This document shows, in pieces, positions 2,754 through 63,671 of a DNA stretch of 64,000 bases; position 1 is the first letter of the stretch, and each line of letters begins with the position of its first letter. This DNA is from Klebsiella pneumoniae (lineage in GTDB: Bacteria > Myxococcota_A > UBA9042): contig CAMDBH010000002.1 in assembly GCA_945889325.1 (NCBI GenBank), forward strand, positions 39,242 through 103,241. The letters are read 5' to 3'. Made by a program: the position numbers and the translations under genes. A model generated the notes under the pieces. The model was not told the origin of the DNA. It was given only the letters and a program-made list of their open reading frames with translations, and made no database searches.

Positions 2754-3037
2754 AAATCCCTCGCTTTGCGCCGCACCTCGCGCGGAAGCAGGCCGGCGAG
2801 CGGAGCGAACTCCCGCAGGCGTTGGCTCTGGGCATCAGGGGCGCGCAACACCTGTTGCAGGTGGGCCATACCTTGCGCCGACGCGCGAGCATCCGCCAAC
2901 AACACGTCCCAACAATCAAGCCATTTGTCCCCGTGCGCACCGAGTTGCCGCCAATGCGTGTTGGTCGCCTGCGCGGTTTGCAACAGTGCGGGGTCGGCCA
3001 GAAGCGCGTCGGCCACAAGTTCTGCGAACGTTGACAT
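2735..3037 (-). CDS. small hypothetical protein, partner of the NTase-like gene. Start set at the internal Met MSTFAEL…; the ORF is open to 3241.
   Basis: ORF track. Contains an Rx4H-like motif (RQLGAH). Gene overlap with the downstream NTase-like ORF. Confidence 0.3.
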   Translation of the reverse strand: MSTFAELVADALLADPALLQTAQATNTHWRQLGAHGDKWLDCWDVLLADARASAQGMAHLQQVLRAPDAQSQRLREFAPLAGLLPREVRRKARDLCGYRH

Positions 3038-3786
3038 GGTTTGCTTTGCCCGCAAATGCGCGACTTCTTGGTATTTTACCAAACCGCGGTCGATTTGTCC
3101 ACTGCCGATGGACCCGCCAATCCGTGGCGCCCGCCCACCAAAAACAAAATCACAAACTGCGCGGAACGCGCGGAACGCGCGGGAGCTAAAAATTGCAGAT
3201 TGGGCAAAAATCATCAAACATAACCCTCGATCCGCGCCCATTCATCCACCGCTTGTCCGTGGTTCACCAATCACGTGCGCGATCCCGAGGCCAAAAAATT
3301 TGCGCGGCAAATTTTTTGACGAAAGACGCGCCGGCACGTGCACTTATCGCGGGCCCATCTCTTCTCCGTCCGCTGCCTGCGGCAGGATCCATTTGCGCCG
3401 CGCGCAAATGCAACGGTTAGTGCAGCGGGATAAAAGCATGAATTTAATGGCAAAAGCGCGCGGGGGTGCAGGGGGCCGCCGCGCGAAGCGGCCCCCTGCT
3501 CGCCGATAGGCGAAACCAATCTAAAGATAACAATGTGTTACAACCGCGCGCCGTGAGGCGCAAAACAAGCCTTTGCAAATGAAAGCCGCGCCGTGAGGCG
3601 CAAAACAAGCCTTTGCAAACGCACGCCGCGCCGCTAGGCGCCCAACCTGCCGGAGGCAAAAGCCATGCGCAGCATAATGTTAGCACCGCTACGCAGTCGC
3701 GTAATCGACCTGAAGGTCAGCTATGCCAAACAAAATCCAAATGAAAGCTGGACCGCTCAGGGCAAAACCCGCCGGGAGGCGCCCCA

Positions 3787-4536
3787 TCAATCGATCAAAG
3801 CCTTCAAAGCCTTAGCACTGCGCAACGGCTGATGCACGACTTCAGTTAGCAGCGACGCCAAGTGATCTTCAATAATCCTGAACATTTGGGGCGGCAAGGC
3901 GTCGATCAGATCCAGCGTCGGCGGCGACTGCGTCAAGACCGCCAAAACCAGCAACCACGCGGCGGGCAAACGCGGACCCGACGCACCGGCACATTCCAAA
4001 CAAATCAGACCGTGCGCGGCCTGCGGCCAAACTGCGCCCGCGGCGTTGGTTCTGCCACACTGGGCACATTGTTGAACGTCGGGGAAAAGGCCCAGCGCTT
4101 GCAGAAAACTGACCTCCAAAAGCACGCGGGCGGCGCGAAGTTGCTCATCGCCTACGGCCGACGCGAGTGACAGGGCGGCCTGAAGCCAGTGATACAGCGG
4201 CAAATCCGCATGATCTGGCTGACTTGCTACGATCGCGAGTTCCGTTGCATACGAAGCAAGGGCCAGTTGCGCGTAGGTGACGCCTTCATTTCGCCATTGT
4301 TTTATCGGCTGAACCTCGGCCAATGTGTCAAGGCTGCCGCGGCTGTGTTGAGCGAAAACCGTCAGCTCGGCAAAGGGTTGCAGCAAACCTGCGAAGCGGT
4401 GGCGGCTGGTTTTGGCGCCGCGGGCCAAGACGTCGCGGCGGCCGCTCTGCTCGGTCAACAGGGCCACGATCACGTTGGCGTCCCCCAACGGCTGCAGGCG
4501 CAGGACCAGACAGGCTCCCCAGTCGGCGGCGGGCAT
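3787..4536 (-). CDS. recO: DNA repair protein RecO
   Basis: N-terminal RecO OB-fold pattern (LRLQPLGDANVIVALLTEQSGRRDVLARGAK). Zn-finger CxxC…CxxC (CAQCGR…CLECAG). Length 249 aa. Confidence 0.8.
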   Translation of the reverse strand: MPAADWGACLVLRLQPLGDANVIVALLTEQSGRRDVLARGAKTSRHRFAGLLQPFAELTVFAQHSRGSLDTLAEVQPIKQWRNEGVTYAQLALASYATELAIVASQPDHADLPLYHWLQAALSLASAVGDEQLRAARVLLEVSFLQALGLFPDVQQCAQCGRTNAAGAVWPQAAHGLICLECAGASGPRLPAAWLLVLAVLTQSPPTLDLIDALPPQMFRIIEDHLASLLTEVVHQPLRSAKALKALID

Positions 4537-10556: not shown

Positions 10557-11192
10557 TTAATCACGGGTGCTTACCTCCGCGGTTTGGCGCCGTGCGCGCG
10601 CGATCAGCGCGCCCATGGCAAAGGCCAAGCCGAGCATGGCGCCGCGGTCGACCGCGTCGGTCGGCGAAGCGGTGCACCCGCCCTTGTGCTCGGGCTCAGG
10701 TGCGGTCGCAACGGCGCCCGCATCGGCGACTTCGCCGCTTGCGGCATCGCCACTTGCAGCCGCGTCCGCACTTGCAGCCGCGTCAGCACTTGCCGCCGCG
10801 TCAGCGCCGGCCGCTGCGTCACCACTTGCCGCCGCATCGACGCTCTGTCCCGCATCTGGAGGCGGTGCGACACCCGCGTCCGGCTCGGCAGCCGCATCGC
10901 CACCTGCCGCGATATCGGCGGCAGCCGAAACGTCGTCGGGCGCCGCGACATCGGCGGCGACAGCGGCGTCCGCTTCACTGGGCGTTGGCTCTTTGGGCAG
11001 CGCAACATCGGGATCTGACGCTACATCTGCTGCTGGGGCCACGTCTTCGATGGCAGCGTCGGGGGATCCGTTGCTGGCATCTTCTTCGGCAAAGGCGACC
11101 AACGGCAGCAGGATCGCGCCGACGAAAGTCGCCAAAATACTCAACTGTTGAAAAATTCGACCCTGGGCAATGCTAAAAAATTGGACGCTCAT
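10557..11192 (-). CDS. secreted Ala/Asp-rich low-complexity protein with C-terminal MYXO-CTERM-like sorting signal (GGC + TM helix + RARR)
   Basis: N-terminal signal peptide (MSVQFFSIAQ…LPLVAFAEE). DAAASADAAAS repeats. C-terminus PEPEHKGGCTASP…MLGLAFAMGALIARARR. Confidence 0.5.
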   Translation of the reverse strand: MSVQFFSIAQGRIFQQLSILATFVGAILLPLVAFAEEDASNGSPDAAIEDVAPAADVASDPDVALPKEPTPSEADAAVAADVAAPDDVSAAADIAAGGDAAAEPDAGVAPPPDAGQSVDAAASGDAAAGADAAASADAAASADAAASGDAASGEVADAGAVATAPEPEHKGGCTASPTDAVDRGAMLGLAFAMGALIARARRQTAEVSTRD

Positions 11193-24828: not shown

Positions 24829-26985
24829 CTAAACCTTAGGTTTCTTCGCCTTGCGCGGTGGCGCATCGCCAGCCAGCGGCTTGGTCGCCTTGGGTGCCTT
24901 GAACCGCGATTCCACCGGTTGCGCGGCCGTCTGCGGCGCTGCGCCGGCTGACTGCGGCTGCGGGAAACCGGCTTCACTGTTTTTCCAGCGCGGCGGCGTC
25001 GGGCGATCTTCGGGCTGGGCCATGCCCAAAATGGGCCCAGTTGCCGACACGCGGATCTGCAGAAAACGCCCGCAGATCATGGCGCGTTTCATCCGCTCGA
25101 GCACTTGTGGCACAAACTGGACCGGCAATTGCACCAGACTGAAATTGTCGCTGATTTCAATGGTGCCCATCGCTTGACCAGGCACACCCGCTTCGTTGGC
25201 GATCGCGCCCACGATGTCCTGTGGCCGCACGCCGTTGCGCCGTCCGACGCCGAGCGACAGCCAAACGCGATCGCCGCCCTGCGGGCGTTCTTCGCGCATC
25301 GGCGGCCGTTCATCGCGCGATGGTCGGTGATCGTCGTAGATCTGCGGGCGCTCGTCTCGCATCTGCGGGCGCTCGTCTCGCATCTGCGGGCGTTCGTCGC
25401 GCATTTGCGGGCGTTCGTCGCGCGTTTGCGGGCGGTCGTCGCGCGCGCGCGCTTGTTCCTCGCGCATCGGATGGGCGCGCGAACGTTCCGCGGGTGGCGG
25501 TTGGGCGGGCAGGGATGGTTGCGGCGGCCGATTGGGCGCCAGCTTCGGCGGTCGCGGGTCGGCAGCGCGAGGCGCCGGTTTGAATTCCGGTCGTTGCTGT
25601 TGCGGCGCAAACAGATCCGCTCCCAAATCCGCCTGCAGCGGCCGATCGCCCCAAGCCAAGTTGGCCAATGCAGCGGCCACGTCCTCCATCGGCGTGCCTT
25701 CGCTCAAAAGCTTGTTCAATAGCGCGCGGTAAGGCCCCAGATCGTCGCGCAAAAGCGTTTTGGCGACAGCGGCTGAAAATCTAGTAATCCTGGACTCTTG
25801 CACGTCGCGCAGCGTGGGCAACGGCATTTGCGCGATCTTTTGGCCGGTGAAGCGTTCCAGATCGCGCAGTTTGCGCTGCTCGCGCGGCGTGACGAACAAG
25901 ACCGACTTGCCGCTGCGCCCGGCGCGACCGGTGCGGCCGATGCGATGGACGTAAACTTCGGATTCACCGGGTAAATCTGCGTTGACAACCAAATTGATCT
26001 TTTCCACATCCAAACCGCGCGCCGCGACGTCGGTTGCAACCACGATGCGCAACTGGCCGTTTTTCAAGCGCCTGATCACGCTTTGACGCGCCGACTGGGC
26101 CATGTCGCCGTGCATCGCTTCGCTCGCGAAACCACGGTTCTCAAGCATTTCCGCCAGTTCCGCACAACCCGAGCGAGTGCGCGCGAAAACCAGCACGGCG
26201 TCGATTTCTTCCACGGTGAGCAACCGAACCAAAGCTTCCAGCTTATGCTGCTGTTCTACAATGATAAAGCGCTGATCGACAGTCGCCACGGTCAGGGCGC
26301 GCCGCTCCACTTCAATCGTTTCCGGATCGCGCAAGTAGCGATGGGCAATGCGCGCGATTTCCGGCGGCATGGTTGCAGAAAACAACGCCATACGCCGAAC
26401 TGGCGGCATTTGCGAAAGAATTTGCTCCACATCGTCGACAAAACCCATGCGCAGCATTTCATCGGCTTCATCGAGCACCGCCATGCGCACTTTGTCTAAC
26501 TTGAGCGATCCACGGCTCAAATGGTCCAAAATGCGCCCAGGCGTGCCGACCACCACGCGGACTGTCCCTTCCAAACGCCGCAGTTGCCGCACGATCGGAT
26601 CGCCACCGAAAATCGCCAGCACACCGACTTGGCCCATGTGTCGCGCATATTCTTCAATATGTTCACAGACTTGTATCGCCAATTCCCGCGTCGGCGCCAA
26701 GATCAGCGCCTGTACGCTGCGATCATTCATATCCAGCAGTTGCAGAAGCGGCAGGGCGAAGGCGCCCGTTTTACCGGTACCCGTCTGCGCCTGACCCAGC
26801 ACATCGCGCCCGTTCAAAAGCGGCGGGATAGTGCGCATTTGGATCGGCGTCGGTGTGACATGGCCTAGGTCTTCAAGCGCGCGCAAAAGCGCCGGGGTTA
26901 GGCCCAAATCACTAAATGTTTGAGTAGGTTCAATCAGGTTGTCGTCATTGATCTGCGGGGTCTGCATCAATTTTTCCAAGGGCAT
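24829..26985 (-). CDS. deaD: DEAD-box ATP-dependent RNA helicase (DeaD/CsdA-like) with Arg/Pro-rich C-terminal tail containing DERPQMR heptad repeats
   Basis: Q-motif region (TFSDLGLTPALLRALEDLGHVTPTPIQ); AQTGTGKT; DEAD box (VLDEADEML); SAT; HRIGRTGRAG. C-terminus RDERPQMRDERPQMRDERPQ…. Confidence 0.85.
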   Translation of the reverse strand: MPLEKLMQTPQINDDNLIEPTQTFSDLGLTPALLRALEDLGHVTPTPIQMRTIPPLLNGRDVLGQAQTGTGKTGAFALPLLQLLDMNDRSVQALILAPTRELAIQVCEHIEEYARHMGQVGVLAIFGGDPIVRQLRRLEGTVRVVVGTPGRILDHLSRGSLKLDKVRMAVLDEADEMLRMGFVDDVEQILSQMPPVRRMALFSATMPPEIARIAHRYLRDPETIEVERRALTVATVDQRFIIVEQQHKLEALVRLLTVEEIDAVLVFARTRSGCAELAEMLENRGFASEAMHGDMAQSARQSVIRRLKNGQLRIVVATDVAARGLDVEKINLVVNADLPGESEVYVHRIGRTGRAGRSGKSVLFVTPREQRKLRDLERFTGQKIAQMPLPTLRDVQESRITRFSAAVAKTLLRDDLGPYRALLNKLLSEGTPMEDVAAALANLAWGDRPLQADLGADLFAPQQQRPEFKPAPRAADPRPPKLAPNRPPQPSLPAQPPPAERSRAHPMREEQARARDDRPQTRDERPQMRDERPQMRDERPQMRDERPQIYDDHRPSRDERPPMREERPQGGDRVWLSLGVGRRNGVRPQDIVGAIANEAGVPGQAMGTIEISDNFSLVQLPVQFVPQVLERMKRAMICGRFLQIRVSATGPILGMAQPEDRPTPPRWKNSEAGFPQPQSAGAAPQTAAQPVESRFKAPKATKPLAGDAPPRKAKKPKV
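25280..25450. repeat. tandem 21-bp repeats (5 good units plus degenerate flanking units) inside the helicase C-terminal coding region
   Basis: ctgcgggcgYtcgtcNcgcat repeated head-to-tail between ~25342 and 25446. Confidence 0.7.
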
Positions 26986-60589: not shown

Positions 60590-62017
60590 TCAAGGTTCTT
60601 CGGCGTCGGGCTCGTCGTCTTCACCCGGTTTGGGCGCAATGAGGCTGTATTTTCTGGCCAAGCGCCTAAAATGCTTGCGATCGACTTCCGCCTCGCGCGC
60701 CGCTTGACTCAAGTTACCGGAATGTCGGGTCAAAAGTGCTGCTAGGTATTCTTTCTCAAACGCACCAAGCCAAGTCTCCTTGGCCACTTTGAACGTCGAG
60801 TCCGACATCAGCGGCGCAGCGGTGTTGCCGCGCACCGGTTCGGTGGGGTGAAATTCGGCCTTGCGCGCGCGTGCCGGCCCATAACCTGCGATGTGATCTG
60901 GCAAATCTTCCAGCTGAATCAAATCACCTTCGGCAAACGAGCAGGCCCTCTCGATGACGTTGCCCAGTTCTCGCACATTGCCCGGCCAATCGTAGGCCAT
61001 GAGCGCATTGTTGGTATCGGACGCTATGCCTTTGACACGTTGGGCATTTTCACTGGCAGCACCGATGCGGTTGAAAGGCGCCGTTTTGAGCATGTGATGC
61101 ACAAGTAGCTGAATATCCTGCTTGCGTTCGCGCAGCGGCGGCAACTTGAGGCGCACAACGCCCAGACGGTAAAACAGATCTTCGCGAAATCGCCCTGCTT
61201 TGACTTCCGCCACCAGATCGCGGTTGGTCGCGGCGATCACGCGCACGTCGATCTTGATCGGCCGGTTGCCGCCGACGCGGCGCACCTCACGTTGTTCAAG
61301 CGCGCGCAACAGCTTGGGCTGCAAATCCAAAGCCAATTCGCCGATTTCATCCAAAAATATGGTGCCGCCCTGGGCCATTTCAAACAGGCCCTGACGCGAG
61401 GCCAGCGCGCCGGTGAAACTGCCCTTTTCATGGCCAAATAGCTCAGATTCGATCAGATTTTGTTGGACGGCGCCGCAGTCGAACACGATAAATGTCTGGT
61501 TTGCCCGCTGCGAGCACTGGTGAATCGTGCGCGCCACGACCTCCTTGCCAGTGCCGGTTTCACCTTCAAGAACAACAGTCGCCCCCGTCGGCGCGATTTT
61601 TTCAATCACGGCCATCATGCGCCGCATCGATTCCGATCGCCCGACGATGCCGCGCAAGCTTTCACTGGAACTGGGTTGAATATCTACTTTTTCGCTGACA
61701 ACGGAGAAGCGAAACTGGGTATTGCCCAAGCGAATCGGCGTGCCGCTTTTAAGCCACGCATCGCGTACCCGCACGCCTTTGACCCAAGTGCCCGTGGCCG
61801 ACTTGAGATCTTCAATGTGAAAGTCGTCACCTTCCATAAAAATTCTGGCGTGATAGCGACTGACACGGTCGTCGTCGACCACCAGATCGTTGTCTTCCAT
61901 CGCGCCCAAAGTAACGCTGGGCGTATCAAAAATGTACTCAGCGACCGTGCCATCGGCATCTGTGCGGATCAGACGGCTGCGGCGAATGGTGACGGAAGTA
62001 GTAAAGGTTTCCGACAC
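60590..62017 (-). CDS. sigma54-dependent transcriptional activator with N-terminal FHA domain
   Basis: FHA ([33 protein letters not shown]); AAA+ EBP core ([18 protein letters not shown]…GAFTGA…[15 protein letters not shown]); C-terminal HTH. Confidence 0.85.
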
Positions 62018-62057
62018 TTAACCTCTTGAACTCACTGTAGGCGCTCGCGTTGCTCGA

Positions 62058-62097
62058 CACCATCTGGCGTTACTTTTAAGCATCTGGCGTTACTTTT
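62058..62097. repeat. perfect 20-bp tandem direct repeat (catctggcgttacttttaag x2) in the 96-bp dksA / sigma54-activator intergenic region
   Basis: Exact duplication visible at 62058-62077 and 62078-62097. Confidence 0.7.
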
Positions 62098-62113
62098 AAG
62101 CCGGGCTTTGGCC

Positions 62114-62536
62114 CTACATTTCGAACGAAGTCATGCGCTGGCGACGTTTTTCGTACATTTTTTCAACGTGTTCCTGCTTTTCTTTGCAGTCGATGCACAA
62201 ATTGGCTTCAGGTCTGGCGACCAATCGCGCAGAACCGATGTAATTTTCGCACTCTTCGCACAAATTGTAGTCACCGCTTTCAATGCGCCGCAGGGCCTTG
62301 TCGATTTTCTTGAGCAATGTCGCGTCGCGGTCGCGCAGCCGAAATTCAAACGCCTGATCGTAGCCGACAGACGACAAATCCATTTCATCGGCCACGCGCA
62401 ATTCATCGGGATCTTGGTTGTGTTCGGCGCTGCGCACCGCCTGCAGGATGCGCTCGCGCTTCTCAACCAGCGACAAACGTTGCAGTTCAATCTCTGGTTC
62501 TGTCAGCGGTACCAATTCTAATGTTGATTCTGGCAT
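62114..62536 (-). CDS. dksA: DksA/TraR-family C4 zinc-finger transcription factor
   Basis: Coiled-coil N-terminus. CxxC-N17-CxxC (CEECENYIGSARLVARPEANLCIDC). Confidence 0.8.
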   Translation of the reverse strand: MPESTLELVPLTEPEIELQRLSLVEKRERILQAVRSAEHNQDPDELRVADEMDLSSVGYDQAFEFRLRDRDATLLKKIDKALRRIESGDYNLCEECENYIGSARLVARPEANLCIDCKEKQEHVEKMYEKRRQRMTSFEM

Positions 62537-62636
62537 GACGGCCTCCTACGCACACTTTGAATGTTGAAGCACTTTTGCGGTCAACTATATGATATTGCAA
62601 ACTGTTCCCGCACAGCCCGCGGCAAACCCGTGGGGC

Positions 62637-62660
62637 AGAAAAATAGCAGCGCCCCCTGCT
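62637..62660 (-). terminator. rho-independent terminator (minus strand) after the CPBP protease gene
   Basis: Minus-strand reading: AGCAG-ggggcg-CTGCT followed by ATTTTTCT. Confidence 0.45.
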
Positions 62661-62774
62661 TTATTCCGCGCCGGGTGCCGTTTGCGATTCAAATTGATGC
62701 GGCACCGGTGTTGGCGATTGTAGGGCCGCGGACCGCTTAGGGTCAATAGCAAGTTGCAGCCGAAATCTCGGGCA

Positions 62775-63671
62775 CTACAACCCGTGCGGCGTAGATTTAT
62801 GCCATACCGCGGCCAAATCCATGGCCCAAGCCACCGCAACGTGAATGGTTACGCCACCCCAGATGCTGCGGGTATCCATGGCCAGCGTGCCCAAAACCAT
62901 GCCGGCAACAATGGAGCCGAGGCATTCCGGCAGCGGTTTGCCAAAATGAATCATGCAGTACGGGATCATCATGACCAAAGTCGCCATCGAGCCGAATTCA
63001 CCCGCCATGCCGCGCAGCATGAAACCGCGAAAAAAGAATTCGAGCGAAAAGAATTGCAAGCCATAACCCAGCTCCCAGATGAGCAAATCCGGCCAACCTT
63101 GGTGCGGATCGTAAAATGGATACTGGCGCAAAAACTCGGGCGTGTTGGCGACCAACAGCACCAGCAGGCCGACAGGCAGGAAAAGCAAAGCATAAACAGG
63201 CAGATGACTTAGGTACTCGCGCGGCGCTAGATAGGCATCGCGCAAACGCTCGCCAAAAACGGTGCGCATCACCAGGGCGGGGACGGCAAAATAACAGGCA
63301 AAACAGCCCAGCGACCACGACAAATTGACCAACAAACGCTGGTAGCGCGTCAGAATTTCCGCCAGATGGCTGGAAAACATCGCCGCGACATCTATGAAAG
63401 TACGCGCAACACCGTTTTGAACCTCATGATCCATCACGATAAAACGCAGCATGACCAGCATGAGCGCAGCCGTGAGCGAAGTGACAATCGCGGCTTGGCG
63501 CGCGGGCATCCGCCCCACCGGCTGCCCGCGATCGCGCGCGTCGACGCGCTGCCACGCCTGCACAAAAAACGTTTGCAGCAGCCAGTGCAGCCACTGCCCG
63601 GGCGATCGCCGCGGCGGTGTTGGCTCAGGCGGGTCCAGCGGCAGTTCATCGGGCGTGGAAAAATCGGTCAT
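62775..63671 (-). CDS. CPBP-family intramembrane metalloprotease (CAAX protease / Abi-like)
   Basis: Motif 1 LEFFFRGFM (EExxxR); multiple TM helices; downstream His motif (VTIHVAVAW). Confidence 0.6.

Follow-up and report, generated by a model that had tools for sequence, protein, structure and literature searches.

Sigma-54 enhancer-binding proteins (EBPs) with an FHA domain are known from Myxococcus xanthus (Jelsbak, Givskov & Kaiser 2005, PNAS 102:3010, a source met here as reference 91 of PMC12288465). The stretch of 64,000 nucleotides that we analysed (hereafter the window) encodes a protein of the same build. Like the M. xanthus proteins, it has an N-terminal FHA domain (PF00498, residues 35-98, E = 6.4e-17), a central sigma-54 interaction AAA+ domain (Sigma54_activat, PF00158, residues 124-290, E = 8.4e-71) with its lid (AAA_lid_14, E = 1e-22), and, putatively, a C-terminal DNA-binding region. 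The likeness extends to the phylum (Myxococcota) and to a Ser/Thr kinase gene found near one of the orthologous loci. The translation contains the Walker A motif GETGTGKE, the loop GSFTGA and the Walker B motif IFLDEI. Two points set the window protein apart from the M. xanthus class: its loop reads GSFTGA, one substitution away from GAFTGA, and it reaches no NCBIfam equivalog cut-off, the NCBIfam matches being to generic enhancer-binding proteins only. The C-terminus reads by eye as a Fis-like helix-turn-helix; PF02954 (HTH_8) gives no match to the window protein at E<=0.001, and several of its orthologues have a precomputed match to that family. The original prediction that FHA takes the place of a receiver or GAF domain holds, as Pfam finds neither Response_reg nor GAF in the protein. 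By its domains the protein belongs to the FHA-EBP class, and its architecture is not unusual: at least 120 close homologues in public data share it, at 56-96% identity, and this large group of orthologues belongs to uncultured Myxococcota.

In this part of the window every gene is encoded on the minus strand (Table 1). The cluster of Rce1-like protease, dksA, FHA-EBP and large membrane protein genes beside a divergent uvrD is kept in most of the orthologous loci, and the pair of EBP and membrane-protein genes in all of them. The protein encoded upstream of the EBP is a member of the DksA/TraR family that scores 93.7 bits against TIGR02420, below the equivalog cut-off of 115.5. The membrane protein on the other side has no Pfam or NCBIfam match. 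Across the loci a membrane protein of 750-800 aa is always encoded 3' of the FHA-EBP, often so close that the stop and start codons overlap or abut, and the two form a conserved regulator-partner pair; the orthologue in locus L168 (4513-6855) shows a weak match to PMT_2, a GT-C glycosyltransferase-like family. Of the EBP's immediate neighbours in the window (the Rce1-like protease, DksA and the membrane protein), none has a kinase domain by Pfam. In locus L172, positions 3-1927, immediately upstream of dksA and the FHA-EBP, encode a Ser/Thr protein kinase (Pkinase) as well as an ECF sigma factor that carries a zf-HC2 anti-sigma-like domain; the kinase gene stands two genes upstream, and its product could plausibly signal to the FHA domain.

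Table 1. Features of the dksA-EBP cluster in the window
Feature	Position	Strand	Evidence or remark
Rce1-like / CPBP intramembrane protease gene, first in the conserved cluster	62775-63671	-	Pfam PF02517, synteny
Candidate sigma-70-like promoter TTGACC-18-TACAAT, upstream of dksA	62717..62746	-	promoter scan
DksA/TraR-family protein, 140 aa, four-Cys zinc finger	62114-62536	-	Pfam PF21157 (DksA_N), PF01258 (zf-dskA_traR)
dksA-to-EBP spacer, 96 bp	62018-62113	-	between the two ORFs
Copy 2 of the 20-mer with one extra periodic base (62101)	62081..62101	-	Tandem Repeats Finder, exact search
Copy 1 of the 20-mer	62061..62080	-	exact match; CATCTGGCGTTACTTTTAAG on + strand, CTTAAAAGTAACGCCAGATG on coding strand
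FHA-domain sigma-54 enhancer-binding protein, 475 aa, GTG start	60590-62017	-	Pfam
Polytopic membrane protein, 754 aa	58303-60567	-	starts 22 bp after EBP stop

As originally described, a region of 96 bp separates the EBP gene from dksA, and it contains an exact head-to-tail duplication of 20 bp. An exact search finds CATCTGGCGTTACTTTTAAG twice on the plus strand, with the two copies abutting at 62061-62080 and 62081-62100, three bases higher than the range of 62058-62097 given earlier. Tandem Repeats Finder reports a period of 20 with 2.0 copies and 100% matches over 62061-62101. The periodicity covers 41 bases, and the extra periodic base at 62101 constitutes 1 nt of microhomology at the duplication junction. 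A general repeat scan did not list the abutting copies; as both Tandem Repeats Finder and the exact search do, we take this to be a quirk of the tool. Chance identity over a 20-bp repeat is of the order of 1e-7 per window. The repeat is a genuine duplication event, far beyond chance, and it belongs to a common mutational class: 1.10 Mb of other fetched bacterial loci contained 13 perfect tandem duplications with periods of 15-60, or about 1 per 85 kb.

Metagenome-assembled sequence can hold local errors, and the contig of the related locus L163 ends just upstream of the spacer, inside the 3' end of dksA. Both facts would suit an assembly or sequencing artefact. However, contigs from two different runs in the Logan assemblies (ERR5863107 and ERR3719144) match the window at 100% identity, the first across 5.7 kb and the second across 4.8 kb, and contain both copies of the 20-mer, so that three assemblies, the window and the two Logan contigs, agree base for base. 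A periodic stretch of 41 nt should also be unambiguous at the usual assembly k-mer sizes. The presence of the same duplication in two independent public assemblies makes an artefact very unlikely, to the point of being scarcely credible. The Logan contigs represent the same strain as the window and are silent on the age of the duplication; contigs that encode the identical protein are 99.98-100% identical and carry no population information.

Orthologous loci were collected by a genome contig scan with the EBP (L003-L005) and by exact-protein look-ups (L163-L172, L175 and L176). The genome scan contributed three true orthologues. The same scan of metagenome contigs returned only paralogues of at most 55% identity, which are of no use for a comparison of spacers. 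The nearest relatives, L163 and L175/L176, share about 83% nucleotide identity with the window in coding DNA; the L163 EBP is 96% identical to the window EBP at the protein level, and DksA of L175/L176 falls into the same 90%-identity cluster as the window DksA. The spacers of L163 and L175/L176 are 55 and 52 bp long, against 96 bp in the window, and hold no recognisable trace of the 20-mer. The alignment is confined to about 13 nt that precede the GTG start codon and include the ribosome-binding site. In six further orthologous loci (L164, L165, L168, L172, L003 and L005) the spacer is 74-298 bp long and unrelated in sequence. In all, the 20-mer occurs in none of the eight orthologous spacers, not even as a single copy. 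Judged by this comparison, the sequence of the window spacer appears to be unconstrained save for its last ~13 nt with the AGAGG ribosome-binding site (62026-62022). One of the relatives, L003 (CAYHHL010000022.1), is titled 'uncultured Enterobacteriaceae bacterium'; because its FHA-EBP locus is syntenic with this myxobacterial cluster, at 80% protein identity, the record is probably mislabelled.

The original prediction offered two readings of the duplication, one as a recent event and the other as a dimeric binding site, and held that a 20-mer occurring only once in all relatives and bound by no protein would speak for neutral slippage. The relatives go further than that, as they carry zero copies. 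The first reading is borne out by the identity of the two copies together with the absence of the 20-mer from the orthologous spacers examined. The 90%-identity clusters of the EBP and of DksA hold no one-copy sister strain; they consist of the window's strain and the relatives at 83% identity only. The ancestral spacer presumably had one copy.

DNA of the same cluster serves as a control for constraint. The intergenic region between the Rce1-like gene and dksA (62537-62774) was compared at the same evolutionary distance as the repeat-bearing spacer, that is, at 83% coding identity. Here the window and L175/L176 are 85% identical, with long invariant blocks. This degree of identity implies that noncoding constraint is detectable in the cluster. 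Such constraint is apparent upstream of dksA and absent from the spacer with the repeat. The control region contains the sigma-70-like site TTGACC-18-TACAAT, which was also found independently in L175 and is kept in the window, L175, L168 and L005. This site is likely to be the promoter of a transcript that spans dksA and the EBP gene. The constrained, promoter-like sequence upstream of dksA and the lack of a terminator-like site after dksA together suggest that dksA and the EBP gene share a transcript. Within the cluster, it is the DNA upstream of dksA that holds the conserved regulatory sequence, and we advise against annotating the repeat as a regulatory site.

The stretch that follows the promoter-like site has features of its own. 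Within the intergenic region 62537-62774, minus strand (2740-3000 in L175), it forms a leader of ~190 nt that contains the hairpin CCGGTGCCG...CGGCACCCGG, another, terminator-like one with a T-run (62660-62645), and a second TTGACC. The leader has no Rfam match. Its predicted fold is not significant (z = -0.64), and only two distinct sequences are at hand for covariation. The dksA-EBP operon may thus have a conserved leader or an attenuator here.

The spacer with the repeat presents a different picture from this neighbouring region. Neither strand contains a sigma-70-like promoter or an intrinsic terminator, and the spacer has no sigma-54 site of the form TGGCAC-N5-TTGC. With one mismatch allowed, this sigma-54 pattern occurs 5 times in the whole window, against 11.8 expected, and 0 times in the spacer. 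No Rfam family matches the spacer at E<=1, its RNA folds no better than shuffled sequences (z = +0.22), and it contains no inverted repeat or dyad. These results give no indication of a structured cis-regulatory RNA or a terminator in the spacer. Three candidate signals were considered and rejected. A sigma-54 promoter read from TGGCGTTAC...AAGC in the repeat has a GG-to-GC spacing of 12 instead of 10, on a strand that points into dksA. A promoter created by the duplication itself, TTAAAA ... TAAAAG, would have a spacer of 14-15 nt, and the promoter scan was negative. A terminator at GGGCcaaaGCCC after the dksA stop codon would have a stem of 4 bp, lacks a T-run and is missing in the relatives.

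The second of the original readings, a dimeric binding site, would make the pair of 20-mers a direct-repeat operator or enhancer, at which a dimeric regulator contacts sites two helical turns apart and controls the activator gene. Candidate binders would be the FHA-EBP, by way of its C-terminal helix-turn-helix, and a response regulator of the kind that binds direct repeats. With a centre-to-centre spacing of 20 bp the copies face much the same side of the helix, and their location 43-83 nt upstream of the EBP start codon fits an operator. In having two identical direct units upstream of a regulator gene, the locus resembles direct-repeat operators, iterons and the upstream activating sequences of EBPs. 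It differs from them in lacking conservation, extra copies, a promoter and a dyad. The 20-mer is missing from every one of the eight orthologous spacers, while the neighbouring intergenic region is 85% identical between the window and L175/L176. Nor is there recurrence elsewhere or a fixed distance to a promoter: the 64-kb window contains no third copy with up to 3 mismatches allowed (0 of 100 shuffled sequences gave any match in the control), the 13-nt core of the repeat is not enriched in the window, and the exact 20-mer has no match in viral contigs. The original proposal had asked for other copies across the genome, and the answer holds for the 64 kb covered. An EBP enhancer site normally takes the form of an inverted repeat that lies upstream of a GG-N10-GC promoter, an arrangement absent from the spacer. 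Both copies are perfect even at positions that a protein would not read, which speaks for recency and not for selection. Every comparative test speaks against the binding-site reading, which we regard as distinctly improbable. The non-conservation of the 20-mer may still be compatible with a function specific to the strain.

Taken with the comparison to the region upstream of dksA, the evidence leads us to consider it most likely that the 20-bp repeat is a recent, lineage-specific duplication of the slippage type, lying in unconstrained DNA and having no function. The locus shares with known short slippage duplications the lack of a gap between the copies, their perfect identity, a noncoding position, absence from relatives and a frequency like the background, and it lies in DNA that tolerates insertions. 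It departs from them in having only 1 nt of microhomology and a one-copy ancestor that is reconstructed and not seen. Replication slippage or misalignment with one base of microhomology at the junction would most likely have made the repeat and lengthened the spacer from 76 to 96 bp. A single transcript, begun at the conserved promoter-like site ahead of dksA, would cover the dksA and EBP genes, the EBP would be translated from its own AGAGG ribosome-binding site, and the duplication would play no regulatory role. Both the protein and the repeat are within known kinds. As the FHA-EBP architecture has been described since 2005 and the repeat behaves as an ordinary neutral indel, we attach low importance to their combination.

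Similar duplications are found at the same place in other members of the clade. The spacer of L164 (2391-2424) contains a perfect duplication of 17 bp, CTTCCTTCGAAATGTAG, and that of L003 (3803-3858) a repeat of 27 nt at period 29 with 81% identity; each includes the last dksA codons and the stop codon, and both are unrelated in sequence to the 20-mer of the window. These two cases indicate that insertions of this type are apparently tolerated in the dksA-EBP spacer. Counting the window, three of nine orthologous spacers (window, L164 and L003) have a tandem duplication no more than ~50 nt away from the stop codon of dksA. This exceeds the background rate and hints weakly, and only in hindsight, at a local hotspot or at selection for spacer length.

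An alternative is that the duplication is adaptive, tuning the expression of the EBP by altering how far its start lies from the dksA stop and by means of an upstream ORF that could couple or attenuate EBP translation. The recurrent duplications in relatives would then stem either from a mutational hotspot or from spacer length having been selected repeatedly. In the window, copy 2 adds a second ATG (62083-62081), which opens an upstream ORF of 21 codons, MLKSNARWCRATRAPTVSSRG* (62018-62083, minus strand), whose TAA stop (62020-62018) directly abuts the GTG of the EBP. The one-copy state has a single ATG, in another frame that runs into the EBP gene. The independent tandem duplications beside the dksA stop in L164 and L003 and the range of spacer lengths among the orthologues, from 52 to 298 bp, are also in keeping with tuning. 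However, neither ATG has anything resembling a Shine-Dalgarno sequence ahead of it (the bases there read AAAGTAACGCCAG), and the upstream ORF is not conserved, since the relatives lack the sequence itself. Duplications that follow or include the stop codon are expected to survive because they leave the protein unchanged; they are the very ones expected to be neutral and hence retained. The excess at the spacer was noticed after the fact and comprises 2-3 events. We find adaptive tuning unlikely. A broader proposal has the 3' flank of dksA as a site of recurrent short duplication in this clade, owing to selection or to a hotspot of replication or transcription, at which the upstream ORF of the window could tune the FHA-EBP relative to DksA; to this we give slightly less credence still. 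If tuning did occur, the locus would be a small case in which duplication within a spacer tunes expression, here in an operon that joins DksA to a sigma-54 activator responsive to Ser/Thr phosphorylation. Neutral slippage remains the reading that we prefer.

The window has other tandem repeats. A second perfect tandem duplication, of 21 bp, lies at 25340-25392, within an array of about 8 copies of a 21-bp repeat (25279-25467), and about 5 copies of an 18-bp repeat are found at 10751-10835. Because their periods are divisible by three, these two arrays are probably repetitive protein-coding segments. An intergenic array of a 40-bp unit (3547-3641; 2.4 copies, 90% matches) is located between the ORFs 2766-3509 (plus strand) and 3787-4536 (minus strand), and each of its units comprises the hairpin GCGCCgtgaGGCGC followed by AAAACAAGCCTTTGCAAA.
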